DNA of 58,068 nt, filler included, from Sphacelaria rigidula (lineage: Eukaryota): the NCBI GenBank assembly GCA_964200075.2. It is 8 parts of 8 records of this genome, joined end to end, with 100 filler letters (N's around TTAATTAATTAA, not from the genome) between each part and the next. Parts side by side here need not be neighbours in the genome. Positions count along the whole stretch, not along the records: positions 29,085 to 36,255 come from CAXNAA020016147.1; 7 more parts are not named here. The stretch is one strand, 5' to 3'. A program made the translations under genes and the position numbers. Under the pieces are notes generated by a model. The model had not been told where the DNA came from. It ran no database searches and saw only the letters and a program-made list of their open reading frames with translations. Below, piece after piece: positions 333-47,405 of this stretch (within the stretch, counting starts at the first letter, position 1; each line of letters begins with the position of its first letter).

Positions 333-2808
333 TTGCATGGTACCCGAGCGGGAGTTTTATTTTACCCACAACACAAGAACATTGCACACTCTCCTCTCGC
401 TACACCACACCCCGCGCAGCTTACCTATGCCTTTTTATCCTGTATATGTACTGGAAAGAATTCTAAGCCGGTGCAATCCAGTCCACAACAGTTGACCCCA
501 AAGTGTCGTGTTCACCCTGAAGATGAAATGAGTGCCGGACGATCTGAAAACATCACCATCCGGCATAACGCAGCCCCAATGCCCCGCCTGCAACCCTTTG
601 AACCTCGCTTTCACTCGTGGCTTGGAGTCTGGTACGCAGTGGGATACGTGGAAGCACTCGCTTTGAAAAAAAAAACAGTTAAATTTCTGTCGGGTCCAAA
701 AAATATCTATATACATACACGACACGTCCGTCCAACGGTTTCGTGTTTGATTGTATGCTATACGCGTCTACAGGACCAACCAGGTCTGATGGCTTTTCTG
801 GCAGAAAGATCCAGGCGTACGAATGCGGTGCGTACATATTTTCGTACGGACCAAACGGATATACAAGAAAATCGAGCTTCAGCGCATAGCGAGTGCATTA
901 TCCAGGACCCCTCTGCGAACCAGATCCAGGAAGGCTGGGAATCAGGAGAATCACCCCGAGCCCCACTACAAGCCCCTGTATATAACGAGAAAGACTTTGT
1001 TCCAGGACACCTGAGCACGGTAGTCCCGTTCTGGCAAGATATTATTCTGAAGGACCACATGCAACCCGACTTGTTATTGTGGATTAACGGTGTAGACATA
1101 CACACATTTGTCGACAAATCAACGACAGCACATTTCCAAGGACGCCCCTTTCACGGCGCCGATCTTACTGGTGTGGAGTTACCCAACCACGTGAATCCAG
1201 AACACGAACTGTTTGTCGACTGCGAGATCAGAAAACTTGTCGATAAAGGCTGCGCGGTGCGATGGGCGGAGATAGCAGACGTTTACGCACAGACCAAGCC
1301 ACCCATGTCTCTCCCGCTCGGAGTAAAACCGTCGGAACCACGCTTAATCTGGGACGACCGTTGGCTGAACCTCATGTGCAATGATATGCCGTTCAAGATG
1401 GACGGAGTAGGAAAGGTGGCCCAATGCTCGTGGCAAGGTGCTTACCAGGTTACGATGGACCACAAATCAGGTTTTCACCATGTGCCCTTCGACCACACAT
1501 CATGGGAATACTTGGGTTTTCAGTGGAAGGGCGAATATTACGTCTGGACTATCCTCTGTTTTGGTTGGTGCAGTTCCCTCTAGATGTACCACACCCTGAG
1601 CGAGGCGGTGGCACAATACCTGCGATCCCGACATGTACCAGTACTGGCGTGGATCGACGATTTCTGGCTGACTCGAGTCCGCTCGACCAAACATGACCCA
1701 CCTAACACGCAGAAACAGGCAGCAAGCTCAGCAGCCCTCCTGGCGCTGTCAGTCTTCCATCACTGTGGATACTTCATGTCCATCTCGAAATGCCAGCCAG
1801 AGCCCACTACGAAAATTGTGTTGTTGGGAATTCTGTACGACACGGACAACTGCTGGTTCGAAGTCCCCGAAGATAAGCTCGTTAAGTTAGAGCGCATCTT
1901 GAACGATGCCCTTGCTTCCGGAACCATCACGTTCACCATGCTTGAGAAGCTGGCGGGAAAGTGCACAGGCATGTCGGTTGCAGTTCCAGCAGCCAGTTTG
2001 TACACGTTTCACATGTACAAATAGATGGCGATATACAGAAAGACGGGAGGAAAACATAACACAGCAACGGTAGCGCTCTCTGTCAATGGTGGTCTTCGAA
2101 ACGAGATAGCCACATGGCGGAAACTCCGAGACAACATGAATGGGGCGGCCTTGTACAGCCCTAGTCACCGCATCATCGCCATAAACGGCGCCACAGATGC
2201 CTCCTCACTTGCATGGGGGGGCATTGTTCGAGGCCCCTCTGGCGTCGCCTTTACAGCGGCCGCCGATTTTTCCACCGAATGGGTGACAGCACACATCAAT
2301 GTCAAGTAAACGTTCGCACTGCACGAGGTCCTTAGACTGTTCTGCTTAGAGCAAGCTGATCAAGTGGCGGGGACTAGTCTGTCAATAGATGTCGACAACA
2401 AAACCATGTACCACGCCTTCAAGAAAAGTAAAGCCAGGGACGAACGCATGCACACACTCATCCAACAGCTCTTCTAGATGCAAGTCAGACAAGACTTCAC
2501 ACTCACGTTACGATGGGTAGACTCAAAGACGAACTCAGAGGCAGACAGCCTCTCAAGACCAGGAGCCAATGAGCACGTGCGACTGAGAGCAGAATATTTT
2601 GACCAGTTATAGTTCGAGTGGGGCGGGTTCGACATGGACCTGATGGCATCCACAGCATCAGCCCAGAATATTCCAATGAATACACCGGGTGGAGGAACAG
2701 TTCTGCCCTTTTACTCTGGATATCATACAGCAGGATCACACGGGGTAGACGTTCTTAGCTATGGCGTTAGCCGCTCATCATGTCGGATGCAGCAATGCTT
2801 CGGGTGTT

Positions 2809-2841
<33 letters not shown>

Positions 2842-3215
2842 CCCCCCGCCGCGCGTCCGCCCACCCGCGTGGCAGGAGNNNNNNNNNNGGGGTAGCCTTT
2901 CTTTGGGGTGGCGCCCCCCCCTCCTCCTGTGGGGTGATGCAGGGCTGCGGTCCCCCCCCCCCCCCCCCCCCCCCGGTGATGGTCGGAGTAGTGCTTCAGC
3001 ACATCGTAGATTGCCACGCCCGTGCGATGGTAGTGGTTCCAGCGAGACCGGCGTCGTGGTACCCTGTGCTCACAGAAGCAGCCGTACGTACCAAGCTTGT
3101 ATCTAGAAAAGGGGAGAATAGGCAGTACTTTCGTACCCACCATCAACGAGGACAGGAGGCGTTCGTATTTCATGAATGGAACATGCACGCAGTTGGAGTA
3201 GATTTTCAAGCCTGA
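333..3215 (+). pseudogene. DIRS-type pol: reverse transcriptase + RNase H + DNA adenine methyltransferase-like domain, with several in-frame stops
   Basis: ORFs 333-1583, 1584-2024, 2025-2309 and 2634-3215 are in one frame. RT motifs PRLIWD, DHKSGFHH, LCFGW, WIDD. RNase H motifs TDASS, DVDN, EADSLSR. MT-like motifs DLMAS...GVDVL...CFPP...VVVP...WYPVL. Stops at 1581, 2022, 2307, about 2475 and about 2608. A 10-N gap lies at 2879-2888. Confidence 0.9.
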
Positions 3216-3218
3216 TGA

Positions 3219-6178
3219 ATGAATGATATTCGGCATGACCCTGTATTGCAAAGTGTCACAAGAGATGCTCTGCCCTCTAAGACGCCAATTACCACACGTA
3301 GAGTACCCGAGAACCATCTGACGAATGCTCTTATCGTGCGACCATTTCAACACATCCAGGCGCTCCTCATGCTCCTCGCTTTGGTGCAACCGTTACTAGT
3401 ACGGATAACAACGATGCTCGCCCACCTAGGCCACAAGCGCGACCCCCCCAGCCACAGCTCGAGTATGACTCGAGTCTCCGCCTCGCGAGCAAGAGTACTC
3501 TGTCCCGACTGCCATGGGGAGAAGGACGAAGACTTTCAATACTGTCAATGGTGCGGCAAAAAGAGTTCGATATTAGCTACGAGAGTAACGCAGGAGGCGG
3601 CATTAAAAATCGATGAGGAGGCTATACAGAAACGATACATTCAGTTTACGCTAGCCGTGGCAGCGTCAGCCTCAGCAAAGAGACAGGATTTTACAACAGA
3701 ACTATGTAATGGATTCTTAGCTTCACGACCCGGGTCCGGCCCCAAATATTGGACAGCAGCGCAATCGACCGACATTGTAGCCTTTCTGTGCTGGCTTGAT
3801 GCATGGGGGAAAGGACGCACGCCAGTACATGCTAGACACTGCGCTGCAGTAGGTGCCCCCGGACTAATCGACTGCTCAACAAAACAGGGGGAATGTACCT
3901 ACAGATACGCACACGATTCCTTACAGACGAATTATACGTCGAAACGAGCGATGGCCTTCGAGAACGAGCTCGGAACGAACTTCGACTGGAGCGATGTATT
4001 ACGGATAAGAAACCCAGTCCGCAGCAACCCCGTGGCAGAATATACGATGTTCACCAGGGAAGAACAGAAGAAAGCAGGAGTGCTAGTAAGACAAGCACCG
4101 ATTCTACTACACAGTCACCTCCTTGAACTGATCACCCCATTGAGGTCAGCTCTACAATGTACTAGAGATGCCAAGGAGCAGGTACTCCTGACCCGAGACA
4201 TCGCCCTGTTCACAGTGGCATTTAGCACCACTAAGCGCGGCGACGAGCTCACGAGGATCCTCGTCCAACGCATTCTCAGACTCCCCAACCTCAGTGATTT
4301 CATGTTCAACTTCCAATGGGAGAAAACACTACGAGGAGGCGCAGACCATCTACTCACTGTACCGTACGATGAGCTCTACCCCGCGACATGCCCTACCCGA
4401 GCAGTGGAGTAATGGGTGAAGGTAGGGAAGCCTGGTATAGATATACCCCTGGCCTAAATATACCTCCCTATACTAAATGATATTTCATGTACCTTAGTCA
4501 TGTTTTTTCGGAGGCTATATGATATGAAATGATATTTTTTTCAGCAAAATGTGACTTGAAGGGTATGTGATATGTGGTATATGATAGGTCTAAATCGTGT
4601 GATATATATGACTGTATTACCTGGTACATGTAAGATATCGGCTTATATCGGTACAATGTGCTATACAATGCGCGATAACTGGGACCGCCCACTGTACACA
4701 AAAGGGGACGCACACGTCTGCCAGACTTTAATTACGAGTACTGAGGTGAAGTTTTGACGCGATGAGCGACGCCCTGGCACCTTCATCCCCGGCTACAGGC
4801 GAGTCTCAGCAGCAGTCGCCTTCGACTACGCCCACCCCCATCACCGCCCCCAGGCCGTCTTCGACCACTGCCAAAACCGCAAGGATCGGCAGGTGCTTCT
4901 CGTAACGAGTGGGGGGCGGGATGCAGCTAGCGGGTGGCGTGAAATTTATTTTCTCGGGGTTTCGGAGTAGTGCAACTCCGTGCCAAGCGAATCGAGCTTG
5001 CAGTGTTTTTTCCCTTGCACCTGAACCTTCGATGTTTTGATTTGCTACAGTTTTTCTTGCTTCGGTTTGATTTTTCGGTCGGGGTTCGTCCGGTTGCAGT
5101 CGGTCGAAGGAGCATTGTATCATAATAGCCGCCTGACCTGTGATACGCCCTGAAAGTCGGAGAGATCACGTGTGGGGCGCAAGCAAAAATTAAAAAGGAA
5201 CATGAAGATTCTTATGATACATGTCGTTGCCGTTATTGATCGCAATGCTACTGCTGTCTGCACGTCTGCATTTCACCACATATGTAAATATAACCTCGGA
5301 GCAGTTGCGTTTGGTGGAGTCACCAATACAATTGCCACACTGGGCACAGTTCCCAACCAACGACAGGTATATAGATGCGAGAGTATCACTGAAAAACGCG
5401 ACATATATTATATATGCGGGGGGACCATATATGTAATGCACTACATTGTTGTGTCCCAAATAGGTTAAATAGCGAGTTACTTCATCATCATATAGGTCAG
5501 ATGCCAGGTGATCCACGTCACACAGCCAGAAATCACGTGATATATAGTATATATATATCGCATATATAGTATATATACCCCTATATATCGTATACCCTAA
5601 ATATATTAGATTCATATCGATACATGGAAAAATGGGGGGTATATGAACATGACTACGAATAAATCAACTTTAATGACATACCACCTTTTTCGGGAGGGGT
5701 ATATATAGATACACTATATCTCGAAAAGTTGAGATGATACCAGGGTCTAGTAGGGACATCGATGGGTTGTAATTTGACCCGAGGCTATCTATTTCCCCAG
5801 ATTGATACGTCGACAGCAACCCCGGAACGCGGTTTGACACCGATGCCGGCCGCTCAGATGACGGTGACACTCAGACATCGAGGAAAGGATGCTGGAATAA
5901 AGTGCCCGTTCTCCATGCATTCGTTTCGCTCGGGAGGCGCCGTCTCCCGTGCCCTGGCAGGCGACGATTTGAAGACGATAATGCAGAAGGCTTTCTGGAA
6001 AAGACCGAGCACGGCGTGGAGATAAATGAGATCGATGGAAGTTGTAGATCCTGGCACAGTCGGAAACCGCATGGTCGAAGGCGTCTCGGAAGCTCAGTAC
6101 AGAGAGATTCATGAGTTCCCATTACAGAAACAGAGTAGGTCTTGGTCAGCCTTCGGGAAACAACTCATGTACACATAA
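3219..6178 (+). pseudogene. Tyrosine recombinase of the DIRS-order element, split by an insertion at 4429-5749
   Basis: N-terminal CxxC..CxxC ribbon (CPDC/CQWC), catalytic R in KRGDEL, HxxR in MHSFRSGGA, W in KAFWK. Removing 4429-5749 plus one TSD copy restores the frame (VE*WVKVGTSMGCNLTRGYLFP). The expected catalytic Tyr codon reads TAA (6023-6025), and the frame continues to TAA at 6176-6178. Confidence 0.88.
4429..5749. mobile_element. Non-autonomous TIR DNA transposon (hAT-like) inserted into the YR gene
   Basis: GTAGGGA is duplicated at 4422-4428 and 5750-5756. The right end reads TAGACCCTGGTAT in reverse complement against a left end AGCCTGGTAT. Subterminal TATATACCCCT motifs occur in inverted orientation at both ends. 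No transposase ORF. Confidence 0.8.
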
Positions 6179-7171: not shown

Positions 7172-7271
7172 NNNNNNNNNNNNNNNNNNNNNNNNNNNNN
7201 NNNNNNNNNNNNNNNTTAATTAATTAANNNNNNNNNNNNNNNNNNNNNNNNNNNNNNNNNNNNNNNNNNNN
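7172..7271. other. Artificial contig linker (N44-TTAATTAATTAA-N44); identical linkers at 14443-14542, 21714-21813, 28985-29084, 36256-36355, 43527-43626, 50798-50897
   Basis: Six-frame-stop linker recurring with an exact period of 7271 bp; 8x7171 + 7x100 = 58068. Confidence 0.99.
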
Positions 7272-7910
7272 TTGTTGCTTGCCTTAGTCATTTGACCATT
7301 GACCACGCATCCCTTTCGAGACGGAGGGAGGAGCGGGGGGGGGGGTTACTCGTGATCTTGCATATGACATCTGACGTCGCTTCCCTGAAAAGCCGGGATA
7401 GCACGCCGGGTTTCCGCCGGACCAGGCTCGCGATCAGTCACCCAAGCTCCAAGCGCCGTGATGTTTTCGGCGAGTCGCATGAAGGGTGAGCTGGATCCTG
7501 CCAAGATTATTCGGCCCGAAACGTACTGATTATCTTGCTTTTGGATGACAGTCTCCAATGAGCTGCTTCATATTCTGATATCCCCATTGACAGAGACACC
7601 CGCGGCTTACACACTGCTTCTTCGGTGTCCCACCATATTAACACTACTACTTAGGATGATCATCCCCTTTGCGCGGAGTTGAGGTCCTCCCACCCCGCAC
7701 GAAATGATCTAGCTCGACCACCATCATGGTTGCCGCAAACAAAACGCAGGTGCGCAAAACAATCGGTAACCTGGTGGCCTAGCTTACACGGTGCGTGGCG
7801 TGTATTTCAGTGTCATCGCCAAACGACACCAACCCCATGGGGGGTTCGTCCGTACAAAGCCGGGACGGAGCACGCCGGGGCTTCGGCGGACCAGGCTAGA
7901 GGGGGAAGGA
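7272..7910 (+). repeat. Dispersed ~600-bp non-coding repeat family flanked by G-runs (short copy followed by long copy)
   Basis: Aligns by eye with 12980-13336 (+) and 36487-37100 (-). Shared motifs GACCATTGACCACGCATCCCT, GCACGCCGGGTTT and GTCGCATGAAGGGTGAG. Confidence 0.8.
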
Positions 7911-8226
7911 GCGGTGCCCATTTTTGAGAGATGTGTAATCCCTTGTTTCACCTTCAGTAATTGGAAAAGGGTAGTAGCACATCAGGATTACAATCTCCAC
8001 GTCAGCGGCAGAAACGAAAACAGGAGCTGCACTTACAACGCTCGAATTTCGAGCGCCAAATCATCACACTTGTTTCGTAGTCCTGCTTCGTCTACGTTTT
8101 GGGGGAGAATTCGGACGAAGAAGTCAAATGCTTTTTGGTCAACTTGTATAACGCCATCACTGGGTTGAACCTAATGACGGTGAACTCATCTCCATGACAT
8201 GCTTCCCTCGTGCGCACCCTCCACAG

Positions 8227-9348
8227 TTTTCTGAAGCGGCGAACGTCACTTACCCGGGCATATACGGGAAGTTCCTGGACAGTGTGAACGTGCTGAATTT
8301 TGATCTGACCTGGATACTCTCTACCGGATGCATCTTCGACGTAGACTTTCACGGACGCCTCATCTTGTCCACGATAGCCCCTATCGTCGGTTTGGCCATC
8401 CTCGGAGCCACGTACCTTGCTGGGAGGAGCAAAAATAGCGGATCTGACGCTGCTCTTGGAAACTTTCGTCGGAAGCACCTCACCATGGTGATTCTGTTGA
8501 CGTTCTTGGTGTACTCGTCAGTTTCTTCCATCTTGTTCCAGATGTTCTCCTGCGACGAGCTGGACGACGGCAGGGTCTATCTTCGCGCAGATTACCGAAT
8601 CGAGTGCGACTCTCGAAAGCACAATTCACTTCAGATCTACGCAGGGTTCATGATTGTCCTGTACACGGCAGGCATCCCCGGTTTCTACGCCACCCTTCTT
8701 TTCAGACACCGTGGCGTGTTGTTGGACGAGGTCGGTCGTGAAGCCAACATGCGCGTAAAACCAATCACGAATTTGTGGGCGCCGTACAAGCCGCAGTGCT
8801 TCTACTACGAGGTGATCGAGTGCGGCCGTCGGATCTTGCTTGCTGGGGTAGTGGTGTTTATTTATCCCAACACATCTGCGCAGATCTCGGTCACAATCGT
8901 GTTGACTGTTCTCTTCATTTTCATCTACGAGGCGTTGGCTCCCTACGCATCTAGATGGGATACGTGGGTGAGTCGTACAGGTCATGCAATAATATTTTTA
9001 AGCATGTATTTGGCTTTGTTGTTGAAAATAGACGTGTCTGACGAAGACGCTATTAGCCGGAGGCTGTTTGGGGGTGTTCTCGTGGCAGTCAATATTTTCA
9101 TGATCACTGTTGTTCTTGTCGAGGCCTTCGTGGTTGCTTGCTCGTTGTGGTGTGAAGAACAAGACGGCCCAAGCCAGTCGAAGAGTGACCGAGGCGTGAC
9201 GTCCTTTTTCGAAGGAGAAGGTCGTCCTTGGCCAGCCAACGCTGACGATGCTCCAACAGGAGCAAACATCGAGCCGCGTAGGTTCATAAAGCTCACTTTG
9301 CCAGCTAGGAGAGACGCATGTCACTGTCGCCCTCACTTATTTCCATGA
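8227..9348 (+). CDS. Probable terminal exon of a multi-pass membrane protein (brown-algal polymorphic membrane protein/adhesin-like family, C-terminal TM region)
   Basis: CCACAG| acceptor at 8221-8226 in frame with the 384-aa ORF. About 8 hydrophobic helices. Family-typical motifs ANVTYP, NFDLTWILSTGC, YLRADYRIEC, LWAPYKPQCFYYEVIECGRRILL. Confidence 0.8.
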   Translation, partial: FSEAANVTYPGIYGKFLDSVNVLNFDLTWILSTGCIFDVDFHGRLILSTIAPIVGLAILGATYLAGRSKNSGSDAALGNFRRKHLTMVILLTFLVYSSVSSILFQMFSCDELDDGRVYLRADYRIECDSRKHNSLQIYAGFMIVLYTAGIPGFYATLLFRHRGVLLDEVGREANMRVKPITNLWAPYKPQCFYYEVIECGRRILLAGVVVFIYPNTSAQISVTIVLTVLFIFIYEALAPYASRWDTWVSRTGHAIIFLSMYLALLLKIDVSDEDAISRRLFGGVLVAVNIFMITVVLVEAFVVACSLWCEEQDGPSQSKSDRGVTSFFEGEGRPWPANADDAPTGANIEPRRFIKLTLPARRDACHCRPHLFP

Positions 9349-12979: not shown

Positions 12980-13336
12980 TAGTCATATGACCATTGACCT
13001 CGCATCCCTACAAAGTCGGGATGCAGCACGCCGGGTTTCCGTCGGACCAGGCTCACACTCAATCACCAAGCGCAAAGCACCGTGGTGTGTTCGGTGATTC
13101 GCATAAAGGGTGAGCTGTATCCTGCAAAGATAATTCGGCCCGAAGCCTACTGATCATCTTGCATTCGGATGACAAACTTTAATGAGTTGCTTTTTTTCTT
13201 TGGCATCGCCACTTCCAGGGACAACCATGGTTTATACACTGCCTCATGGATGTCTCACCACTTTGGGGGCGTACTAATTTCTTGCTTGCCTCAGTCGTTT
13301 GGCCATTGACCACGCATCCCTTTCGAGACGGAGCAC
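12980..13336 (+). repeat. Partial copy of the G-run-flanked repeat family plus its short form
   Basis: Matches 7380-7640 and the reverse complement of 36800-37080; the short form is at 13272-13336. Confidence 0.75.
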
Positions 13337-14279
13337 CGTCAGCCATTTTTCTGGGAAGCGGTTATCGTGCCATTAGTTGAGATTTGGAATTTGGTGCTGT
13401 GGGGTGCAGGTGGCATCCGGCGAATATCTTACCCTCCTTGCGCGTTTCAAGTCATTCTCCAACATGTGGCAGGATACCCGCCCCCCTCTCGCCCCGGGCT
13501 CTAGCTCATGGAGATGGAGTTGCCCGAGCGTGGTGGTGCCTTGTTGAAAGCTGCGCCGTTGGAAGGCGGGGAGACTGATCTAGTAGCCTCTTCCGCAGCG
13601 ATACAACAAGGACCGCTTGTCGTGAGTTGCAGGGGAATATTCCACTAACCAGAAACATGAAAATGGCCACTACCCCCTCTAGGCCAATTGTCCGACCCAG
13701 ACAATTCCTGCAAACAAGTGTGGATAATCTGGAAAGTTTTTTATGACGATCGGGGACCCGCCCCCCCTCTCAATGTGTATATATATGTACAACCCTGGAT
13801 TGTCAACTGGGTATATATACTGTTCCGAAAACGATGCCAGAGATCAAAAGGTTAGATTCTCCTAATGCAGTCTGATTCACGCCCCATTCTCATCCTTCAA
13901 ACTCCGCACTGTGCTGCCCTTCGACCCTCCATGTGTAGTTTCCCGTCGACTTCGGTTTGCCCCAACGTTGAAATTATCCTTCAGGGGTGATATCTAAAGC
14001 ACTAATATGCGGGCATTATTGGCCCATCGTCGCGAGCTGGTGCCACAAGGGAAGCGGAGGGCACATGGTAACAAGATAGAAATATACGCGAAAAAGACTT
14101 GCATCGTTCTGGCACGAGCCGATTCAGTTCATGGATTTTCAACTGTCGAGTGCACAAAAGTTGATATTTTCCCCTCCGAGCGGGGAGGAGAAGGGGGCGG
14201 GGGGGGCGGGGGGTGACCAGGCATGTCAAAATTTCCAGCTCACTGGTACCCATGCACACGTGGCCACTGGGGGGAGGCT

Positions 14280-27996: not shown

Positions 27997-29086
27997 AGCT
28001 CAAAGAGTGCGAGTGCCACGAGTCACACTCGTGCTCGTCCGACGTATGTATGCAAATTTTACGCTTCAACTCTGAATATTGCCCGACGCACTCGCCTGCA
28101 AAGTTCAAATCCGCCTCTAGGCTGCCCCAGCCCGTCGTCCAAAACCAAGTGTTCGTGCCGTTCAACTCGTTGCGCGTTTCAGCCCAATACAGTTATGGGG
28201 GTGAGTGAAGGTCTTACCGACCAAAAATCCTTGGTCAACAAAAAAATACGAACGCGGAGGGATATTGAAGACGTCATTGACAGGAAGCGAATCGGCCTGT
28301 GGCACTTGACAGCCCCCGCGCACACACTAGATGTATTCAGCGCCAAAACGGGCTTGCTCAATTCGCCACAGCGGATCCGAAACGCTGCTGAACGTCGAAG
28401 ATGATGCGTTTTTAGTATATTTTGGCGGTTTGCAGAGTGCGGCCAGCTCCGCGGCACGCGTTACGGCAAACCGTTTTGGCGCTGAAAAGTTCTGGTGTGG
28501 GAAACACACGCATCGAACCGCAGTTCAGTCCTCTGCCTCGTCGCCGAGATATCTGCGTTGAAAAATCGGCACTTGCGGCTTCAGGAACAGCAGCGTTTAT
28601 CGAGGTGAAATATGCGGGATTCTCAAATGCTCGGTGTTTGGAAACTCAAGAAGAAAACGGACTCTCGCGCAGCATGGACAAGGTACAAGGGAAAAACCGG
28701 TCAAGACTTATCCTGTGCCTTGACAGCCGCGCGCAAGGTCAAGGCGGCGGCTCAACGCGCAGAGAAGGCTGAAAAAGAACTCCAGGTTGCCACCGAAAGG
28801 CTCAACGCGGTCACCGATAAGTCTGACGCGTCTGCTTCATGTCAGAGTGTCGGGTCCAGCGCATAAGCCAAGCCGGGGCACCCAATTTTTATTGCGGTCC
28901 TTTGGACCCTTCACAGTCGGGAGACAGCAATGATGTTTTCCGTAACTGACTGTGACTACTAATAACAATATGTGAACAATGCAANNNNNNNNNNNNNNNN
29001 NNNNNNNNNNNNNNNNNNNNNNNNNNNNTTAATTAATTAANNNNNNNNNNNNNNNNNNNNNNNNNNNNNNNNNNNNNNNNNNNNGT

Positions 29087-29245
29087 GTTACTTTCTGGAA
29101 AGACTTTGGAGGTCTCAAGGTCAAGGGTCAGGTGTATGACTACGGGAGTCGCTTTTGGCGAGTACGATACGAAGACGGAGACTGGGAGGAGCTATCGCGC
29201 CAGGAACTAGACCGCTTAACACGGGAAAAAGGACCCGTACTTTGA
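29087..29245 (+). CDS. C-terminal Tudor-like domain, probably the end of a Ty3/Gypsy integrase (5' truncated by the contig edge; not in the ORF track)
   Basis: Translation VTFWKDFGGLKVKGQVYDYGSRFWRVRYEDGDWEELSRQELDRLTREKGPVL* has the Tudor pattern K.F..G.V..Y....W.V.YEDGD.EEL. It is followed by a polypurine tract and TGT at 29948. Confidence 0.7.
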   Translation, partial: VTFWKDFGGLKVKGQVYDYGSRFWRVRYEDGDWEELSRQELDRLTREKGPVL

Positions 29246-29932
29246 CCTGGAGTAGGAATGTCTAGGAATAGTCGTTATATATGAAATGGCACAGGATATC
29301 ATTACACAGGGAAGGGGGTTGTAATATAAGCAAGAAGAATTGGTGGTACCGTACTCTTCAGTATGACTTGCAAGCGTGCCTGTTTTTGTTTCTTCTTTCT
29401 TTCTGCTTGGTGTTCCTTGGCTTGTCCGGTTCCCATTTTGTAACATGAAAATATATTTACGAGCCAAGGCGCGTGGGCTCTATTCGTAGCATAAAACATC
29501 GGTAGTTACAGGCAGGCACTTCCCAAAAGCTGCACTCCCGTAACTATTGATGAATTCGTGGAAAGGTTGTTTTTAGCGAATCCAACGTAAGTTGGATGTG
29601 GTTAAAGCCCCGCACTACCCTGGAATTCAGTGTAACTGATCTGGGGTGTCGACGCGCGATGAAGCTAATTAGCTAATCGTTCTCCAGTCTAACTGAGATC
29701 CCGGGAAAACGACAGCGATCGCACTTGTCTGCGGTTTCTGTCGATTGGAAAGGGCGCTAGAGATTTTTTTCCTTTCTTAACGGATAGGGTTTCCCCCGTC
29801 TAACGGGGTTTACCTATCTATTAGATACCGAGTTTTCCCGTGCAACATCAGTTGCAGATTTTTCTGGTTTCCTTATTTTTACGTGTTGATGCACAGGCTT
29901 TGTTTCCCACATTTCTTTCGCTTAGCCTTATT

Positions 29933-29955
29933 AAAAGGCTGGGGGGATGTTCCGG
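29933..29955 (+). promoter_or_regulatory. Polypurine tract followed by putative LTR start (TGT at 29948)
   Basis: AAAAGGCTGGGGGGA|TGTTCCGG, about 700 bp downstream of the Tudor stop. The LTR end is unresolved; candidates are CGGAACA at 30696 and GATCACA at 32337. Confidence 0.55.
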
Positions 29956-31034
29956 ATTGATCGGTTATGGTCCAGTCGAGTAGATTCCATGTTTCATACT
30001 CTTGCGTTGTCTAGCCCGACAGGTCATGGACCATTCTGAGTCTGTTTGATTTCGACAGTGCCCCCTACTCGGACACAGTCTTTTGGGAACTCATCTCAAC
30101 GTACACGTAGCAGCTATCAGCCGGTTGCCAAACATACAAGAAGCATCAACACTATCGCGGACTGCTATCTCAGAGGAGCCTTTGGCCTTCACCAATGTAA
30201 GCCCGCATTGCACGCATCATATGGGTCTTGTCTCCGGCGTGAACCTTGGGCATGTGCCGGGCCACAAGTGTGTGGGTTGACTCCCACCTGATGAATCGAG
30301 CTCAATGGCTTCGATACTAATGATTGTGTTTGAGCAGCTAGCCTGGTGCCCACTGAACTGGCACCATTACCAGCTAGAGTATCGAGCCTTGACATGGTGT
30401 CCATCCGTGCTTGTGTAGAGTCAACTCCGGCATGACCCCAAAAGGCGTAGCATGCGCCTCCGTAAATTTTTTTGTTTGGGGAGGTTGAGATTTCATCTTG
30501 TCGTGTCACTAGACTTATATATGGTAAACAGTTTGCCTTACAACAATGAGGAGAAAATCCACACAGCAACAAACGCCCTTCTCTCCATGAGTGCGAAACA
30601 ACGCAACAGCGCTGCTGCACAGTTGCGTGCTCTCACTGTTTTCAATAGCAAAAACAACCGCACCAGGATATGCTTGTACGACAATTACGCGGAACAGTAA
30701 AGAGAGAGCATGGACTAGGTAGGCTTTGTCGTCCTGTCTGTTCGTGGTATTGCGTTGTTGCCCGCCGCGTTGCACTGCGTTATATACAACCCAAGCAGAG
30801 CGCCACCAACGGCTTTATGCACGAGTTCATCCGGGATGGTTCATCAGCACGCCACTGCAGGCGTTCAAAGCAAAAGTGAAATAACCTAGCCAAAACAATT
30901 GAAAGGCAATACGGTTGAACGAGAACTGCACGAGTCAACGAACCAGAGGGCCTACAACTACGTCGGGGTGTTTTGGGACAGCAAGTTCCAGACAGCTCCG
31001 GAAGCTGTACGCCAGCGTTGCTATTATCCCTTGT

Positions 31035-31258
31035 TGTGGCTGTTCGTTGTTTGTTTGCTGCGGTTCGTTGTTGTCCTTTATTTTTGTTATTGTGCTGCTG
31101 CTGCTGCTACTGCCTGTGGCTGTCCGTTGTTTTGGTTGCTGCGGTTCGTTGTTGTCCTTTATTTTTGTTATTGTGCTGCCGCTACCGTCTGTGGCTGTCT
31201 GTTGTTGGGTTGCTGCGGTTCGTTGTTGTCCTTTGTTTTTGTTATTGTGCTGCTGCTT
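31035..31258. repeat. Tandem repeat, 3 x ~75-80 bp, GT-rich
   Basis: Unit core TTGCTGCGGTTCGTTGTTGTCCTTTATTTTTGTTATTGTGCTGC. Confidence 0.9.
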
Positions 31259-31765
31259 TGCTGTGTTGCTGTCGCTTGTGTGACTACTATAAACTTTCAT
31301 GTTGCAGTTGCTGCGGCTGTTTCCGCTGTACTGACAGTTACCCTGCTGTGTGGTTACTGTTCCTCCTAAAGAACAATGCAATTTTGTTTTGCTGCCCTGC
31401 AGTTACTGTCCCGCCTAAGGCGTTACGATTTTTGACTTTAACGCCCATGGGTAGTTGTACCCTGCTGGCTATCGCACTGCCTGTTCAGCCCTCATGAGCG
31501 CGTAATGCCGCTTACACCGGCATGTAAAGTCACGAGTAGTTTCCCACTCGCGTAGTTTCCCACTCGCGTAGTTTCCCACTCTGCTGCTTGTACGGTGCCC
31601 CACTTCGACCGCATGAGTTTTTACCGATAAACGATTGTCATCACCATGTGTGCCTAAATTGTTGTACGGAGGTCCCCATGCGTCTGTTCCCCTGAAATGC
31701 ACCTCTTCATGTTGACGAGACGTTGTTCGCTGTTGTGGCCTACCCGCACAGTACAGTGGCTTTCC

Positions 31766-31925
31766 CTGCATCGCGTCACCATCATCCCGTTTGGTCGGGA
31801 TCACACATTTTACTAATTGTGTGTACGGGTTGGCCGGGAATTTAGACTGCATCGCGTCACCATCATCCCTTTTGATCGGAATCACACAAGTTACTAATTG
31901 TGTGTACGGGTTGGCCGGGAATTTA
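31766..31925. repeat. Tandem duplication, 2 x 81 bp (also 3 x GTAGTTTCCCACT-containing units at about 31536-31580)
   Basis: CTGCATCGCGTCACCATCATCCC...GGGTTGGCCGGGAATTTA occurs at 31766 and 31847. Confidence 0.9.
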
Positions 31926-32430
31926 AATATTCGTTTTGAAGCCGCTGCTGCCCGTACTGTTCATCACTGCGGTCGCTTCGATTGACGACAATCCTTTGAT
32001 GACCAACCTTTGATGACCGATCCTTCTCGACTGAAAAATAAAATAAAATAGAATGCCCCAAAAAATAAATAATGAAATGATGCGTGCTGGAAAAAAGTAA
32101 AGCATCGTGAAATAGTGGGTCCTTGCAAAAGATGATCAGTCCTTCAACGCTGACCACGCTAACTGTCATTGAAAGCATTTACTAATGCACGCGATGCTTC
32201 CGTTCCTCTCCCTTCTGTCCTGTCGGCGTCCTTCTCCCTCTCTCGGCCGTTGTTATCGGTTTTCGTTTCCTTGCCCCATACTGATATGGGGCAAACAAAA
32301 ACTGTGTTGCTGCGCATCTCTGTTTTCTTGGATCACATCTCATTGTGACCATGGGAAATGACGAAACACACGCGCCGCCGATTTTTCATGCTGTACTGTT
32401 TCATGCTGTACCAGTTGATAAGTAAAGCAA

Positions 32431-34365
32431 ATGTCTGGCAGAGGCGCAGAAGGTGGTGAGGGACGGGGAGGGAGGAACGATAGACGCCGCTCAGACTCCA
32501 GGTTCTCCTCAGCACGCGGCAGTCGTTCCGATTCCCGGGACTCCCGCTCCCGCTCTCGCTTTCACCGCCGCGGTCGTAGCCGTTCCGATTCACGAGACTC
32601 CCGTAGCGCTCGCCGTAGCTCCCTCCGCCCCTCGCGCTCTCGTTCTACCTTCCCTCGCCGCAACCTGTCCCGCGTGACTTACCGCTCCTCGAGCCGTCCC
32701 AGAATGAGTCGTGACAATCGGTCATCCAGGGACAGACATGAGACGGAGGGAAGCGTCAACAGAGAGGAAGGGGTGGGGCCGAAGCCAATCAACTGGCTAA
32801 GGTGAACAAACGGGTGCTGAATCGCATTGCGAACACCTCAAGGATGCCAGTGTACATGGGCACTTTCCCAGGTAAGCTAACCATCGTCAACAGTGCAGTA
32901 CTTCTTCAAGAAAAGATTTGGAGCACATTGCGTCACGTGGAACGTGCCGCGCTGAAGCTCCCCGAAGATGTACCGCTGGGTGGGGGAAGGTGGGGCACTA
33001 AAGTCGACAAGTACTCGCCCCGTCGCCGTGACTTACTCTTAGACTTGCTTGCAAAGGGTAGCACTACTGCCACAGCCTTGCTATCGGGCACTGACAATCG
33101 GGTGTACCGAATCTCGGGAGGATCGGAAATTGTTCGCTATGAGCAGGTAACGGTTACTGATTGGTTGCGTCTGTTGGTGCGTGAACAAGCTCTTAACAGT
33201 AACTCCGCCGAAAATGCGCGAGAGGCGTTGAAGGAACTTACCCTGAAAAACGGTGAGTCTTGGGAGCATGTGGCTGAGCGAGTTTTGTTGGCTTATAAAG
33301 CAACCCTAGCTTGCGCAAGCCGTCCGCACGCCACTGAAACTGACTTTTTCTGGACTTTCATCACGAAAGAGCAACTGAACGAACTATATAAATGCATCGT
33401 CCGAGCCGTCTTGCCCGATGAAGCGCGCAGGGAGGGCATGCAATCAATACTCCACGAGAAAATGAGTGTAGCAGACACCAAGCTCGCCAACATGGCAGAG
33501 GAGCTGCAAAACCCCCTGGGGGGACCTATGCGCTGCCGCGGTGAAGTGACAAAAGAGTTGTACGAAGAGTTTATCAAAGTTCTCACTGCGCGCCCCTCGA
33601 CACATTACACGAAGCCCGTTCAGAAAAAAACAAGTCGCACGGTAGGGCCAGATCATTTTTTTCTCGCTAGAGGATATTCAACAAATGCCCCCCGCGCAAT
33701 TCGCTGCGCTCCGTGGTGGAAATGAAGGATTGATGCCCCGTTTTGCCGCAGACCCTGTGTCCGCTCCCAGAATCTCACCACAGGTAGAGTACGCGCAACC
33801 TCAACCGCAGTCGAGCAAGCGCGCTCAGCGGCAGACACAGGCCCTGGCGGCAGCATTCAACAACACACCAAGGGCCATCCCAGGGCAGCACGGTGTATTT
33901 TTCGTGGAGCAGAAGCAACGGTCGGCCAGAGAAGTGCAGAATCAAGGCTGGGCAGCGGCCGCGAAAGAAGTGTCTTCGTCGCATGCTGCACCACCCCCGC
34001 CTTCAAGTTCATCCTCGGCTGGGAGCACCCGTGACGACCAAGCCGCCCCTTCCCCGACTGGCGATCGAGACGAGGTCATCGATTACCTCCGCAGGAACAA
34101 GATCTGCTTCGGCCACGCTTTCACAGGTACCTGCCGCCGCCGTGACGGCACTCCCTGTCCGTACACGCACGGCATCATCTCACCTGCTCACTACAGGAAC
34201 GTCCAGGCCCGCCGAAGAGCCGCTGTCCCCCGAAAGCGCCTCGCAGCTCTTACGGAATCCCAATACCTAGCGGCGATCGACATGGGCCTGATCAACGAGG
34301 GTAGCGATGGTGGACAGGAAGACGAAGAAGAAGGGACGTCCTCCGACAGCAACAGTGAAAAATGA
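32431..34365 (+). pseudogene. Gag of a Ty3/Gypsy retrotransposon: RS-rich N-terminus, helical core, CCCH zinc finger; two compensating frameshifts
   Basis: ORFs 32431-32805, 32802-33725 and 33685-34365; the first and third share a frame. Finger CFGHAFTGTCRRRDGTPCPYTH at 34105-34170. Lies directly upstream of protease-RT. Confidence 0.75.
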
Positions 34366-36255
34366 GGGGACGCCCCAGGTATTCTCAATCTGGGGAACTT
34401 GCTGGAGGAGGACTTAGCAGCCATCGCGGGCCGTCTCGGTAACCAACTGTGGGTAGCGGGAGAGATCTGGCACCGAAACCGGGCTCGGAAGTCGTGGCCA
34501 CTCGAGGTACTGTTGGACAACGGGGCAGGTGGGGGCAATTACATGTCTGGGTTTTTGTGGCGTTGCCTCATGAAAGCAGAAGTAATACGTTCTAAACTGG
34601 ACACGAACAATGCCGGCGCCCTTCGCGCTGCTAACCCCTCACGGAGCAAGGTACCCCCGATGTCTATAGTTGGATCAGTCGTGATACCTATCTTGTTCAC
34701 CAAGGATACTCGCGTTCGCGAAGTAACAGTCAGGGTGGTAGAGGACCTACCTTACGGGTTCATTCTGGGGGCAAAGTTTTTCAGGGCAAACCGTAGCATT
34801 CTCGAGTTCAAAGCCACAGGAGGGTTCCGCCCTACCCCATTCGCACAATGGATCCCGTTTTTGACCAATGATAGCCCTCGGCATGCTAAACCGAACATCT
34901 CGGCCCTCGAAACGCTCAACGAAGTTTGTTCGCTAGCCATGCCTCCTGCCGCGCCCGGTAAGTTCCCCAGCTACAGCGACATTGCCTGGGAAAACGACGG
35001 GACGAGGGAGTGGAACATCAAGCTGGCCGAGCATTCCGTCTCCATCGATGGATTTGTAAGCATTGCGGTGGAATCAGTCGTCATGGGACCCCAACCCCAG
35101 GATAGGCAGCTAGTGCTGATCCTGCCCTTGGCTAAGTACGACGTGGACGGTGAAGCGTTGGTAGGGGTAGCCAAAGGAGTGTTGTGGTGGGCACCAGGGT
35201 GTCCAGTTTACTGTAAGTTAGTAAATAGAGGTAAGGATAAAGCCGAAGTGAAGACGCGAGGAACAATCGCGCGCTTGATAGCCCTCAACGTGCGCGATCC
35301 TGCTCGCTTTCACTCACTTTTCGACGACACACCATCAACGGTAGACCAACCTACCATGCCCGCATCTCCCTCGTGCCCTGAGCGTAGTCAACTTCTCTCA
35401 GAACCTAGCCAGGTCCGTGTGTCAGATGCAAACATGGGACAGCTCGGGGGAGCAGAGAAGGCGGAACTGGTGCGCGTCCTGCGGGATTTCGTGGAAGCAG
35501 GATTGTTTCCCACGGATCCCAAGCGAGTGCCAGCCTGCATTAATGGTGAGCTAGAATTACCATTAATCGACGAAAGTAGCACGCCTTTCGCCGCAAAGCA
35601 ACACCGCTTCTCGCCGGAAGAACGCCGAATGATCAGGGAAGTTATCCGCCCCTCAACCTCTCCATGGGCCGCATGATGTCTTTGTGTAAAGAAAAAAGAC
35701 GGTACCTTACGCCTGTGCATCGACTGGCGTGCTCTGAACAAGCTTTTAGTGTACGATAGCGGAGGACTGGGTGACATGCAGTCTACATTTGATGGTCTCA
35801 AAGGCAAGAGATATATCACGCGACTAGATCTAGCCTCAGGATTCCACCAAATCGAGATCGCAGAAAAAGACCGCCACAAGACGGGGTTCAGAGATGCGGA
35901 CGGCCTACTCTTTGAGTTGACCAGGGCGGGTTTCGGACTGACAGTACTCCCGGCAGCATTCACTCGTCGGGTAAAATCAACAATAGGCAACCTGACCGGT
36001 GTACACAGCTGGCTAGATGACATTCTCATAGCCATCTCCACGTGGGATGAGCACTTGGCACTACTGACCATAATCTTGCAACGATTGTCGACTGCAGGAT
36101 TCTCGGTTAACTTTGCCAAGTGCAGCTTTACAGCACTGTCTCAGGAATTTCTTGGCATGTTGCTCGATAGCACAGGGATACAACCGGCCCCGTCCAAACT
36201 CACCGCAGTCGCTAAGATGCCGCGTCCACGCACTGTTGAGGAACTCCGTTCGTTT
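34366..36255 (+). pseudogene. Ty3/Gypsy pol: aspartic protease, dUTPase-like spacer, reverse transcriptase (runs off the contig)
   Basis: Protease VLLDNGAGG and FILGAKF. RT IRPSTSPWAA*CLCVKKKDGTLRLCIDWRALN, LDLASGFHQI, GFGL, WLDDILI, EFLG. In-frame TGA at 35674 and an apparent short deletion before IRPS. Confidence 0.92.
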
Positions 36256-36486
36256 NNNNNNNNNNNNNNNNNNNNNNNNNNNNNNNNNNNNNNNNNNNNT
36301 TAATTAATTAANNNNNNNNNNNNNNNNNNNNNNNNNNNNNNNNNNNNNNNNNNNNCGCACAGACCGAAAGAGAACGACTGGCCATGCACTCCCGCCCCCC
36401 CCATTCGGCACAAATCAGGTCCCCCACGTTTCGCGATCATATTTTTTCCGATCAATTGGCGTAACCCCCCCCCCCCCCTCCTTGGG

Positions 36487-37100
36487 TGCTCCGTCTCGAA
36501 AGGGATGCGTGGGCAATGGTCAAACGACTAAGGCAAGCAATAAATGAGTACGCTCCCCCTCCCGTCCGGCTAGAACCCGGCGTGCTCCGTCCCGACTTTG
36601 TAGGGGCGGACCCCCAATGGGGTTGGCGTTGGTTGGCGATGGCGCTATAAAACACGCCACTCACTGCGTAAGCGAGGCAACCAGGTTACCGACTTTTTTT
36701 TTGCGTTCACCATGATGGTGGTCAAGCTAGATTATGTTGTGCGGCGTGGGAGAATCTCAACTCCGCACAATGGGGATGATCGTACTACGTAGGGTTTGGA
36801 TGGTGAGACACCCATGAGGCCGTGTATAAGACGTGGCTGTCTCTGAAAGAGGCGATGCAAGAAAATAAGGCAACTCATTGTAGGCAGTCATCCAAATACA
36901 AGATAATCAGTAGGCTTCGGGCCTAAAAATCTATGCAGGATGCAACTCACCCTTCATGCGACTCGCCGAACACACCACGGCGCTTCGCGTTTGGTGGTTT
37001 GAGTGCGAGCCTGGTCGGGCGAAAACCCGGCGTGCTTCGTCCAAATTCTGTGGGGATGCGAGGTCAATGGTCTATGACTATGGCATGCATGATCATGAGT
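36487..37100 (-). repeat. Full-length copy of the G-run-flanked repeat family followed by its short form
   Basis: The reverse complement aligns to 7345-7910 and 12980-13336; poly-C tracts at 36465-36479 and 37101-37114. Confidence 0.8.
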
Positions 37101-45067: not shown

Positions 45068-45347
45068 GAGGCCGTACAAAAACCAGAGCATCGGCAGCAG
45101 ATTTGCTACTCAGCTATCTCGAGACCGCGCGCAGCAATGTCAGGAAGCGAGACAAAAACACTATCAACGCCGAAGATACATAAACAAAACCAAAGGAGGA
45201 AGACGAATACCGTACGACACGGAAGAGAAAGGACGGGAAATTAAGGGAGAGCAAGCAAAAACATGAAATGTGTACGTATGGCATGGTCAACAGGAAAATG
45301 AGCTATGTAGAGGTACAAGCCAAGGAGAGAAGGCAACGACCAACTTC

Positions 45348-45596
45348 GACGGGACAGGACAGGACAGGACAGGACAGGACAGGACGGGACAGGACAGGAC
45401 AGGACAGGACAGGACAGGACAGGACAGGACAGGACAGGACAGGACAGGACAGGACAGGACAGGACAGGACAGGACAGGACAGGACAGGACAGGACAGGAC
45501 AGGACAGGATAGGACAGGACAGGACAGGACAGGACGGGACAGGACGGGACAGGACAGGACAGGACAGGACAGGACAGGACGGGACAGGACAGGACA
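45348..45596. repeat. (GACAG)n pentanucleotide microsatellite, ~50 units
   Basis: Direct inspection; occasional GACGG/GATAG variants. Confidence 0.98.
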
Positions 45597-46029
45597 TAAA
45601 TATCAGTTCCCGTCTTCCCCATCTCCAGTGAGAGACTAGGCCGGACACGCTCTCAGTCATTTCCGTCTTGAATTCCTCGAAGGCTGATGTTAACGTTGCT
45701 GCGCCTAGGGTGGGGCCTCTAGACGAAGCAGCCTTTTGATAATCACGTGGTCGGATCGGAAGAGAGGTCTTCGCGTTGCCATGCCTCCTCGAACTCCTCC
45801 GTCCCCTTTCTCGACCCCAAGCGCTATCTGCCCACGTTCTCAGCGGCAACGTCCCAACCTAACGAGCCTCCCACATCAACGTCATGAACAGCCCACTTCC
45901 TTCGTTCTCCTTTGCGTGAAATGTTCCGTAGAGCACGCACACTCTTCTGGGGGCGGTAATCCTCGTGTTTCGGGGTAGTACTCTGATAAAGTAAGCAAGG
46001 TTTCACACGTCGGACAGATCAGCCCCCTA

Positions 46030-47405
46030 TAGCTCGAGCTAGCTCTTTTTGAGCGTAGCTCCCTAGTAAGCTATGAGGGCTACATGAGCTACGCATGTTT
46101 TGACTGGGGTGAGCTATGAGAGCTGTACGAGCTACGCATGTTTGCCCTGGGTGAGCTACCAACCCGTAGCTCATCAGCTCACATTCGTCCTGGATGAACT
46201 ATGAGAGCTGCATGAGCTACGCACGTTTGCGATGGATGAGCTACCAACCCGTACCTCATCAGCTCACATTCGCCCTGGGTGAGCTATGAAAGCTGCATGA
46301 GCTACGCATGTTTGCCCCGGATGAGCTATGGTAGATGCATGAGCTACACATGTTTGCCCCTGGATGAGCTATGAGAGATGAATGAGCTGCACATGTTTGC
46401 CCTGGATGAGCAATAAGAGATGTATGAGCTACACGCGTTTGCCCTGGATGAGCTATGAGAGCTGTAAGAGCCACGATTGCTTGTCCCTTTGACCGCGAGG
46501 GTAGGAGGTCTCTGAATCGGCATCATTCACATCCGAAAAATCAGTTGACGAATGCTGGTTTATCAGATCGCCAACCCTCGCGGTCAAAGGGCTAACTCCT
46601 TGACGGCGAGCATAAGTCATCTGTTGAATCGGCTCCATTGTTACTTGAAAAACGTATGCATAACCAGATGGACTCGTACTCTCGCGGCCAACCGATCAAA
46701 AGAAATGAATCAATCGAGTATTGTAGACACAGGATATTAATACATTTTTTAACCATCCGACCAAGCGAACGAGGATGTGTTGGCTTCTTTTCTTCCTATC
46801 GCGAAGAGTGAGGCAACATCGCGCAACCCAATGATATGTGGCACCATCTGTTCGAACAAGAATGCTGCATCATACGCCACACGGGGTTGGCCAGCGGCGA
46901 GCTAGGCATATGGCGTGAGTGAGTCACGACCATGTGTCCCTGGGGTGAGCTACCGGGCGTAGCTCATCCGCTCATATTTTTCCCGGGTGAGCTATCGAGC
47001 GTAGCTCATCCGCATATGTTTTCCCTGGGTGAGCTACCAACCCGTAGCTCATCAGCTCATATTCGCCCTGAGTGAGCCATGGGATCTGTATGAGCTACGC
47101 ATGTGTGCGATAGGTGAACTACCAACCCGTAGCTCATCAGCTCATATTCGTCCTGGGTGAGCTATGAAAGCTGCATGAGCTACGCACATTGCGATGGGTG
47201 AGCTACCAACCCGTAGCTCATTAGCTCATATTAGCCCTGGGTAAGCTATGAGAGCTGCATGAGCTACATATGTTTGTCCTGGGTGAGCTACCAACTCGTA
47301 GCTCATCAGCGCACGTTTACCTTGTGTTGAGCTATCGGACGTAGCTCACACCTATATGTTTGACTGCAAGGGAGCTACCGCCCGTAGATGAGCTAGCTCA
47401 TGAGC
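46030..47405. repeat. GAGCTA/TAGCTC-rich repeat array with inverted ends (probable non-autonomous element), itself interrupted at about 46485-46930
   Basis: Dozens of GGGTGAGCTA...GTAGCTCATC units; the left end GAGCTAGCTC..TAGCTCCCT is mirrored at 47369-47405. Confidence 0.8.
46485..46692. mobile_element. Two abutting piggyBac-type MITEs (46485-46591 and about 46596-46692)
   Basis: CCCTTTGACCGCGAGGG...CCCTCGCGGTCAAAGGG|CTAA| followed by a copy similar to 40877-40974 and 54432-54526. Confidence 0.7.

Follow-up and report, generated by a model that had tools for sequence, protein, structure and literature searches.

Four gypsy retrotransposon lineages, all with chromatin-reader domains, have been described in Ectocarpus (Dinatale et al., Genome Biol 2025; PMC12477816). 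In the available part of that paper, three of the four carry putative chromodomains, and the chromodomain lineages are placed outside the chromoviruses. The same text describes Gypsy-10_Ec32 as an element with a Tudor-ended gypsy Pol and a homolog in Tribonema minus, and gives it a length of 11,528 bp with 636-bp long terminal repeats (LTRs), figures from which kilobases of non-coding internal sequence follow. A Tudor-tailed gypsy element is therefore not new, having been in print for Ectocarpus since 2025. The present analysis concerns positions 29087-29245 of a 58,068-base stretch of Sphacelaria rigidula DNA (the whole stretch is called the window). On sequence comparison, these positions very probably form the 3' end of pol in the gypsy lineage known as Gypsy-10_Ec32, and encode its C-terminal Tudor domain. 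The likely best explanation overall combines a Tudor-ended Ty3/gypsy Pol with the proposal that this tail serves as a tether to chromatin.

Fusion of the Tudor module to integrase in relatives

On the plus strand the frame is open over 52 codons (29087-29242) and is closed by a TGA codon. The two features under study are:

29087..29242, plus strand: very probably the last 52 codons of Pol, the C-terminal Tudor module (PF21743; 53-73% identity to the C termini of the Pol proteins P0128-P0136)
29243..29245, plus strand: Pol stop codon TGA, read directly from the sequence

The encoded peptide was matched by the Pfam family PF21743 (PTM_DIR17_Tudor, PTM/DIR17-like Tudor) with an E-value of 2.9e-9 and 37 bits, over profile positions 4-46 of 48. 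Because this score exceeds the curated gathering cut-off of the family, which is 27.2 bits, the Tudor assignment is a real family match and not a pattern seen by eye. The initial annotation had described a Tudor-pattern peptide with named aromatic residues and an acidic motif, ending at a stop, and all of this is present: the aromatics are F3, W4, F7, Y17, Y19, F23, W24, Y28 and W33, and there is an EDGD motif. The four strands and the C-terminal helix of the domain are present in the window, the N-terminal helix and everything upstream having been removed by a joint.

The window is composed of eight pieces, each of 7171 bases, joined via N44-TTAATTAATTAA-N44 linkers, with further N10 gaps at 2879, 47595 and 49854; features near 7172, 14443, 21714, 28985, 36256, 43527 and 50798 are artificially cut. 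The Tudor peptide occupies the first bases of piece 5 (29085-36255), and the 'contig edge' at which the integrase core had initially been taken to be lost is therefore a sampling joint between joined pieces. Part of the stretch is contained in 10 of the 11 public runs listed, whose source labels name a single organism or 'algae metagenome'. The last 500 nt of one public contig of 2697 nt (X7 record 25) cover 29085-29584 with five differences, and a further 2197 nt are therefore available upstream of the joint.

A word-index protein search for longer proteins with the 52-aa peptide gave no match, and the family was later recovered by exhaustive HMMER searching: phmmer with the peptide against 1.84 billion representative proteins returned 127 proteins at E<=1e-3. 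The 67 matches of at least 200 aa were scanned with Pfam at E<=1e-5. Two of these, P0014 and P0121, contained Integrase_H2C2 and rve together with the peptide match at the extreme C terminus, at residues 513-558 of the 558-aa P0014 (64% identity to the window peptide) and at residues 626-657 of the 669-aa P0121 (56% identity). A further 15 belonged to unrelated families or had no Pfam match, and five of them (P0028, P0034, P0051, P0074 and P0124) are integrase-tail fragments of the same kind by alignment.

The other 50 of the 67 were of host type, carrying between one and seven PF21743 repeats, no transposon domains and, among other domains, bromodomain, Myb, RCC1 and HA. Such a majority of host-type multi-Tudor proteins, taken with a window that shows no integrase upstream owing to the joint, would suit a peptide that is the last exon of a host Tudor gene, or a captured host fragment beside a retroelement and outside Pol. 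The closest similarities point elsewhere. The nearest matches to the window peptide (56-72% identity) were all short fragments with the module at their end, and the nearest relatives, at 53-73%, were all C termini of Pol or integrase, or fragments, while host-type repeats reached only 34-44%. The window peptide also has a transposon-specific signature, namely the Trp in DWEEL, and QVYDY.

When P0014 was used as the query among longer proteins, nine Pol proteins of 1207-1647 aa (P0128-P0136) were obtained, with 62-83% identity to P0014 across 98-100% of its length. RVT_1, RT_RNaseH, RT_RNaseH_2, Integrase_H2C2 and rve were present in all nine, and all nine end in the module, PF21743 being precomputed for five of them. 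The order in P0133 and P0130 is RVT_1, RT_RNaseH, Integrase_H2C2 and rve, with integrase after the reverse transcriptase (RT) as in Ty3/gypsy (Metaviridae-type) elements. The 53-73% identity of the extreme C termini of the nine to the window peptide was obtained by tblastn. In a local tblastn against the window, 18 of 22 long proteins (P0128-P0149) matched 29087-29236 at no more than 17 residues from the protein C terminus; the four without a match there were P0137, P0138, P0140 and P0147. At the DNA level, residues 3-555 of P0014 were matched over positions 546-2134 of the metagenome contig L001 (2959 nt), so that integrase and Tudor are collinear. This is a dead, frameshifted copy, without an intron-sized gap. 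A scan of viral_contigs for relatives gave 75 pattern matches, of which none was confirmed.

Fusion in frame to an rve integrase, which the initial annotation had expected of full-length copies, is thus borne out in relatives (P0014, P0121, P0128-P0136 and L001), and the two refuting conditions set there, a host exon and a lack of fusion in such copies, did not refute it. Contig word depth, a rough measure summed over contigs, was 6,000-45,000 over 29085-31964 as against 1,000-3,000 over 32205-36255 in four of four runs, and a depth in the thousands marks the element as a very high-copy repeat and not a gene. A host exon was excluded because full Pols end in the module, because their N-terminal parts match the gag, protease and RT sequence downstream in the window, and because L001 is collinear. 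The host-gene origin, at odds with the collinear integrase and Tudor, with nearest relatives of Pol type and with repeat-level depth, was rejected as extremely improbable, and the peptide is treated below as the C terminus of a gypsy Pol.

Predicted fold and proposed role of the Pol tail

The natural fragment P0013 (156 aa, 64% identity to the window peptide) was modelled with AlphaFold2 from a 27-row alignment. Residues 101-156 were predicted as a short helix, four strands (111-115, 121-130, 133-138 and 143-146) and a C-terminal helix, with predicted local distance difference test (pLDDT) values of 93-96. The structure prediction called for by the initial annotation, made here on this relative, thus gives a four-strand SH3-like barrel resembling Tudor domains. 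When compared by VIA with 48,161 PDB representatives, the P0013 barrel gave Z values of 4.6-5.8 with small barrels of SH3-like type, many of which are Tudor readers. Reader neighbours included the BAHCC1 tandem Tudor domain (TTD) with H4K20me1 (Z 5.5) and RDM15 with H3K4me1 (Z 5.5), and further Tudor neighbours were SETDB1, MTF2, Spindlin-4, 53BP1, SMN, PHF20L1 and PHF19. The Tudor domains of PHF1 and LBR were returned by Foldseek with a probability of 0.98-0.99 and weak E-values. In the models, the fold of the module is Tudor/SH3-like.

In the relatives, a second conserved module of ~60 aa, outside the window, lies between the SH3-like GPW segment of integrase and the linker that precedes the Tudor domain. 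Its motif is LYTL.DRR ... WEY(K/R)G ... S.W..E ... F(T/S)PLQLD.F.ALW, and it was located as follows:

P0013 residues 27-78: chromo-like module in a relative
L001:1724-1927: chromo-like module in a relative
P0133 residues 1427-1486: chromo-like module in a relative

Folded alone from a 26-row alignment, the L001:1724-1927 module was predicted with a pLDDT of 89.6 and a predicted template-modelling score (pTM) of 0.73, strands being followed by helices. The top Foldseek rows were chromodomain 2 of yeast Chd1 (probability 0.97-1.00, template-modelling score (TM) 0.57-0.61, root-mean-square deviation 2.6-3.1, E 0.04-0.2). Among 48,161 chains compared by VIA, the first 19 rows were almost only chromo or chromoshadow domains at Z 6.0-4.5, with Oxpecker at 6.0, SUV39H1 and HP1 at 5.7, Chp1 and Chd1 at 5.6, and Rhino, CBX7 and cpSRP43 also present. 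Every Z for this module was below 8, which counts against a chromodomain fold. The Pfam Chromo profile matched none of seven relatives at E<=5, and neither did SH3_Tf2-1; in a positive comparison, Chromo was matched in 16 of 16 chromodomain-bearing gypsy Pols. An hhalign comparison of the module with 16 gypsy Pol chromodomains gave a P of 0.09 and a score of 11.6, a value reached by two of 20 column shuffles. The models therefore leave a possible chromodomain fold between integrase and Tudor, without sequence-profile support and possibly new. If this fold is real, the Tudor domain would sit behind a chromo-like module and not in its stead. The initial annotation had put the Tudor domain in the place where chromoviruses carry a chromodomain. 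This was right in that the domain lies on the C-terminal tail of integrase, but a simple replacement is not what the models suggest, for a module with a predicted chromodomain fold seems to fill that place.

Conservation along Pol was compared over the 78 pairs formed by 13 Pol proteins. Pairwise identity averaged 0.64 for RT, 0.67 for RNase H and 0.64 for rve, and the corresponding values were 0.52 for the Tudor domain, 0.50 for the module upstream of the linker and 0.26 for the proline-rich linker itself. With identities of 0.52 and 0.50 against 0.26 in the linker, the Tudor and chromo-like tail modules are kept by selection.

In the proposed scheme, Pol would have the order protease, RT, RNase H and integrase (H2C2 zinc finger, rve core and SH3-like GPW), and the tail after GPW would consist of the ~60-aa chromodomain-like module, a variable proline-rich linker and the terminal Tudor barrel. 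After reverse transcription, the complex of integrase and cDNA would be tethered to nucleosomes by this C-terminal reader tail. The Tudor domain would bind a methylated histone residue, and insertion would thereby be biased to chromatin with that mark, as is the case with chromodomains for chromoviruses. By this analogy, it is quite conceivable, at a little short of an even chance, that the Tudor domain reads histone methylation and steers integration. In the available part of the Ectocarpus study (PMC12477816), H3K27me3 and H3K9me1/2/3 are stated to be absent, and repeats to be associated with H3K79me2 and H4K20me3. Since H3K9me and H3K27me3 are reported absent in Ectocarpus, H4K20me3 or H3K79me2 would be the most attractive marks.

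Several observations weigh against a Tudor-ended Pol that serves as a chromatin tether. The integrase region of the window copy lies beyond the sampling joint, so that the fusion is seen in relatives only, and the seven relatives scanned all scored 13.6-26 bits for PF21743, which is under the cut-off. Neither the peptide nor the family profile matched any PDB sequence at E<=10. Modest Z values were also obtained by the P0013 barrel with non-reader barrels, namely VapX (5.8), the UvrD C-terminal domain (5.6), CarD (5.3) and KOW (5.2). For a comparison of the aromatic cage, transposon-type and host-type PF21743 modules were aligned. The Tyr that precedes the strand-2 Gly in the host-type pattern F.G..Y.G.V gives way to V/L/I in transposon-type modules, the window peptide having V, and the strand-1 W/F of this peptide differs from one family member to another. 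Little or no variation is seen in VYD(Y/F), (Y/F)W, RVRY, D.(D/N) and the Trp of WEEL, and this Trp is specific to the transposon type. The cage candidates named in the initial annotation are present, but a canonical aromatic cage is doubtful.

The same comparisons bear on an explanation in which the module has a Tudor/SH3-like fold and is no methyl-histone reader, binding DNA, RNA or a host protein. Such a module would aid integration or particle assembly, comparable to the SH3-like domain of retroviral integrase or the 'Tudor' domains of UvrD/PcrA. It would be in keeping with the aliphatic residue at one canonical cage position in the transposon type, with the lack of conservation at another, with the equal Z values of the four non-reader barrels, and with a module that is basic near RVRY and continues into an acidic/basic helix. 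A non-reader module is nevertheless considered unlikely. The sequence family is Tudor, and its other members are found in chromatin-type proteins with bromodomain, Myb or RCC1; four or five conserved aromatics and the acidic D.D motif are retained; and the location on the integrase tail parallels that of chromodomains of demonstrated targeting function. Chromodomains with a targeting function were reportedly described by Gao et al. in 2008.

The chromatin-tether proposal can be extended to a two-part reader tail, in which a cryptic chromodomain-fold module, invisible to profiles, would be combined with a captured host-type Tudor domain reading a repeat mark. This extension is speculative and is given only a small chance. 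If it were true, the Tudor domain would have taken over targeting in brown algae reported to be without H3K9/H3K27 methylation. Reading of H4K20me3/H3K79me2 would send copies into silenced repeats and would account for the very high copy number, and the element would be a naturally occurring example of a retrotransposon that has refitted its integration tether to the unusual histone code of its host.

Downstream sequence, second copy and other features of the window

Between the Tudor end and the end of piece 5, the following features were recorded (ORF, open reading frame; HSP, high-scoring segment pair):

29246..29307, plus strand: short 3' untranslated stretch, read directly from the sequence
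29308..29318, plus strand: purine run AGGGAAGGGGG, a weak candidate for a polypurine tract, then T and TGTAATA
29320..31960, plus strand: non-coding repeat, of very high copy number by contig word depth, separating the Pol stop from the following gag, with putative LTR ends
32431..34365, plus strand: gag-like ORF of a second copy, three frames broken; ORFs from the ATG at 32431, matching the gag of P0137 and P0140
34366..35673, plus strand: N-terminal Pol of the second copy, with a protease-like part and a linker; tblastn of P0128-P0136, 54-62%, from 34441-34660 onward
35674..35676, plus strand: in-frame TGA in the second-copy Pol, a residue in relatives; crossed by the HSP of P0128
35677..36255, plus strand: RVT_1 of the second copy, cut by the joint; Pfam E 1.2e-19, nearest relatives at 74-78%

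The Pol stop is followed by 62 nt, the purine run AGGGAAGGGGG (29308-29318), a single T and then TGTAATA from 29320. The untranslated region, polypurine tract and TGT of the initial annotation are thus there as letters, and an LTR start at this point is at best weakly suggested. A purine run of at least 11 is present in 6% of all 75-nt intervals of the window, L001 and L002 have no purine run directly after the stop, and a search of piece 5 for an inverted counterpart of TGTAATA found none. Self-comparison of the window gave no second LTR copy of 29246-32430, piece 5 sharing no repeat with the other seven pieces, and a tRNA scan of piece 5 (ARAGORN) found no genes and no tRNA-like primer-binding site. 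Downstream of the Tudor stop, L001 and L002 have no nucleotide homology to the window, and LTR ends can therefore not be set by comparison. The interval 29320-31960 should contain an LTR and untranslated leader and trailer sequences.

Within this interval, a stretch at 29580-29640 (GGTTAAAGCCCCGCACTACC, with the variant GGTTCAAGCCCCGTACTACC in other copies) resembles a tRNA T-arm, ARAGORN calling no tRNA there. Around the same positions many public contigs break or differ, and runs X4 and X6 show loose ends at position 29579. Tandem repeats are present inside the high-copy interval at 31035-31257 and 31766-31925 (three copies of ~74-81 bp and two copies of 81 bp); such repeats are typical of long LTR or leader regions. 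A contig of X4 has a joint 29215->35083, which is possibly assembly noise.

The gag-like ORF of the second copy matches the gag parts of P0137 and P0140, which are Ectocarpus proteins. Its N terminus (32431-32740) is Arg/Ser-rich and of low complexity, and the part at 33646-34365 has a CCCH-like Cys-x8-Cys-x7-Cys-x3-His cluster rather than the usual CCHC knuckle. A Pfam scan of the ORF found no gag family. Other copies in the public runs carry an additional GGAA after 32774 and lack one nucleotide at 33658, differences that would unite the three gag frames. For the protease-like part that follows, Pfam gave just a weak gag-asp_proteas match, in the relative P0130. In-frame TGA codons stand between gag and Pol (34363-34365) and between the protease-like part and RT (35674-35676). 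Alignments of relatives, among them a gag-pol protein of Ectocarpus, run through both, and these codons are either decay in the second copy or, in the case of 34363-34365, a read-through stop.

The N-terminal parts of P0128-P0136 matched 34441-36255 of the window at 54-71% identity in tblastn. The nearest relatives of the window RT, at 74-78%, were Tudor-ending Pols, and RT fragments of Ectocarpus sp. CCAP 1310/34 reached 75-76%; the RT identity of other gypsy elements to the window, chromodomain-bearing ones included, was at most 43%. The gag, protease and RT sequence (gag-PR-RT) of the second copy is situated ~3.2 kb downstream of the Tudor end on the same strand. Because the same Pols match both ends, a first copy is represented in piece 5 by its 3' end and a second by its 5' two-thirds. 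Decay of the second copy is seen in its broken gag frames and in-frame TGA, and the window copy is a diverged and decayed representative of this lineage, which is found in brown algae and related organisms. In P0034 the protease-like part is joined to the Tudor domain and in P0022 the start of RT is; both look like internally deleted derivatives linking parts of the element. PR-RT is less abundant than the 3' part, to which the Tudor-coding end belongs, and this fits many 5'-deleted derivatives and/or solo LTRs.

On the proposed layout, piece 5 would contain the Tudor end, ~3.2 kb of non-coding sequence (3' trailer, LTR and 5' leader) and the second, decayed gag-PR-RT in the same orientation. 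There is about an even chance that this succession of Tudor end, 3.2 kb and gag-PR-RT does not represent two insertions but stems from tandem copies sharing one LTR, or from an assembly loop through a collapsed LTR, so that 29246-32430 would be the 3' trailer, one LTR and the 5' leader of a single element type. The flanks on both sides belong to the same lineage and strand, and piece 5 has no direct repeat of an LTR. For the relative in print, our own arithmetic from the 11,528 bp and the ORF sizes in the available part of the paper gives ~3.3-3.6 kb of non-coding internal sequence plus the 636-bp LTRs. Public contigs bridge 31953-32082 and, separately, 29085-29584, but among the listed contigs none runs across the whole interval 29246-32430. 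Moreover, the depth step at ~31965 and the higher depth of the Tudor part are equally compatible with many 5'-deleted derivatives. A shared LTR or a loop would touch the surroundings only, and the identity of the Tudor module is unaffected.

Elsewhere in the window, a 397-aa open frame at 3219-4412 on the plus strand scores above cut-off for the ALOG domain (PF04852, E 3.5e-7) and weakly matches the zinc ribbons DUF7575/DUF7577. DIRS/Crypton tyrosine recombinases have an N-terminal domain related to ALOG, and the frame may belong either to a mobile element of recombinase type or to a host gene with an ALOG domain. The 398-aa open frame at 8152-9348 (plus strand), whose score for the TRP ion-channel family PF06011 stays under the cut-off (24.6 as against 28.5 bits, E 1.3e-5), is probably a host gene exon. 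Piece 7 has dense short-period tandem arrays at 45348-45596 and 46107-47335 (blastn self-matches offset by 10 bp at 95-97%; units of ~85 bp), and an extensin-like proline-rich frame is found at 45241-45858 on the minus strand. A repeat of ~300-480 bp at 7272-7880, 12980-13340 and 36480-37080 is common to pieces 2 and 6 in opposite orientation (78-92%); it is another dispersed repeat family of the genome.

Comparison with known systems

Integrase-tethered readers set the landing sites of retroelements, and chromodomains are the best-known case. The Tudor-tailed lineage suggests that this task can be taken on by histone readers of other kinds, and its algal hosts are reported to have repressive chromatin without H3K9me and H3K27me3. 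The element could serve as a compact natural probe for the marks of 'safe' chromatin in brown algae, and it would provide a candidate module with which integration might be directed. Contributions of the window are an independent lineage member of very high abundance, the conservation of both tail modules across a wide family, and the hint of a chromo-like fold. A literature search on Tudor domain, integrase and targeted retrotransposon integration returned no paper.

With the chromodomain-bearing gypsy elements (chromoviruses, MAGGY, Tf1, Chronos and ECR-1), the Tudor lineage has in common a small reader fold of the 'royal family' on the integrase C terminus and the order protease, RT, RNase H and integrase; by analogy, the expected role would likewise be the tethering of integration to marked chromatin. 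In contrast, its terminal domain is a PF21743 Tudor barrel and not Pfam Chromo, and the RT of those elements has at most 43% identity to that of the window element. The host PTM/DIR17-like Tudor repeats are of the same PF21743 family and have the core motif ..G.V..Y....Y.V.Y.DGD.EEL in common with the transposon type. The latter differs in being single, in its position at the extreme C terminus of Pol and in lacking the strand-2 Tyr, and it has gained an invariant Trp (DWEEL) and a YW pair.

The C-terminal domain of retroviral integrase is also a small SH3/Tudor-like beta-barrel at the tail, which contacts chromatin or DNA. The likeness lies in a small beta-barrel at the tail of integrase, whereas the Tudor lineage has its own SH3-like GPW segment after rve, and the Tudor domain of a host-type family follows ~170 residues further on.

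The closest described system is Gypsy-10_Ec32, to which the window copy was assigned by description and through named Ectocarpus proteins. In the available part of the paper (PMC12477816), this element likewise has a Tudor-ended gypsy Pol, gag and pol possibly in one ORF, many deletion derivatives and a stramenopile alga as host. That text mentions the Tudor domain alone, with no preceding chromo-like module. Two proteins of Ectocarpus sp. CCAP 1310/34, P0143 and P0144, end in the Tudor module. The window copy is diverged, with 74-78% identity in RT and, against the named Ectocarpus proteins, 46-52% in the Tudor domain, and it differs further in that the window element is extremely abundant in its source runs.

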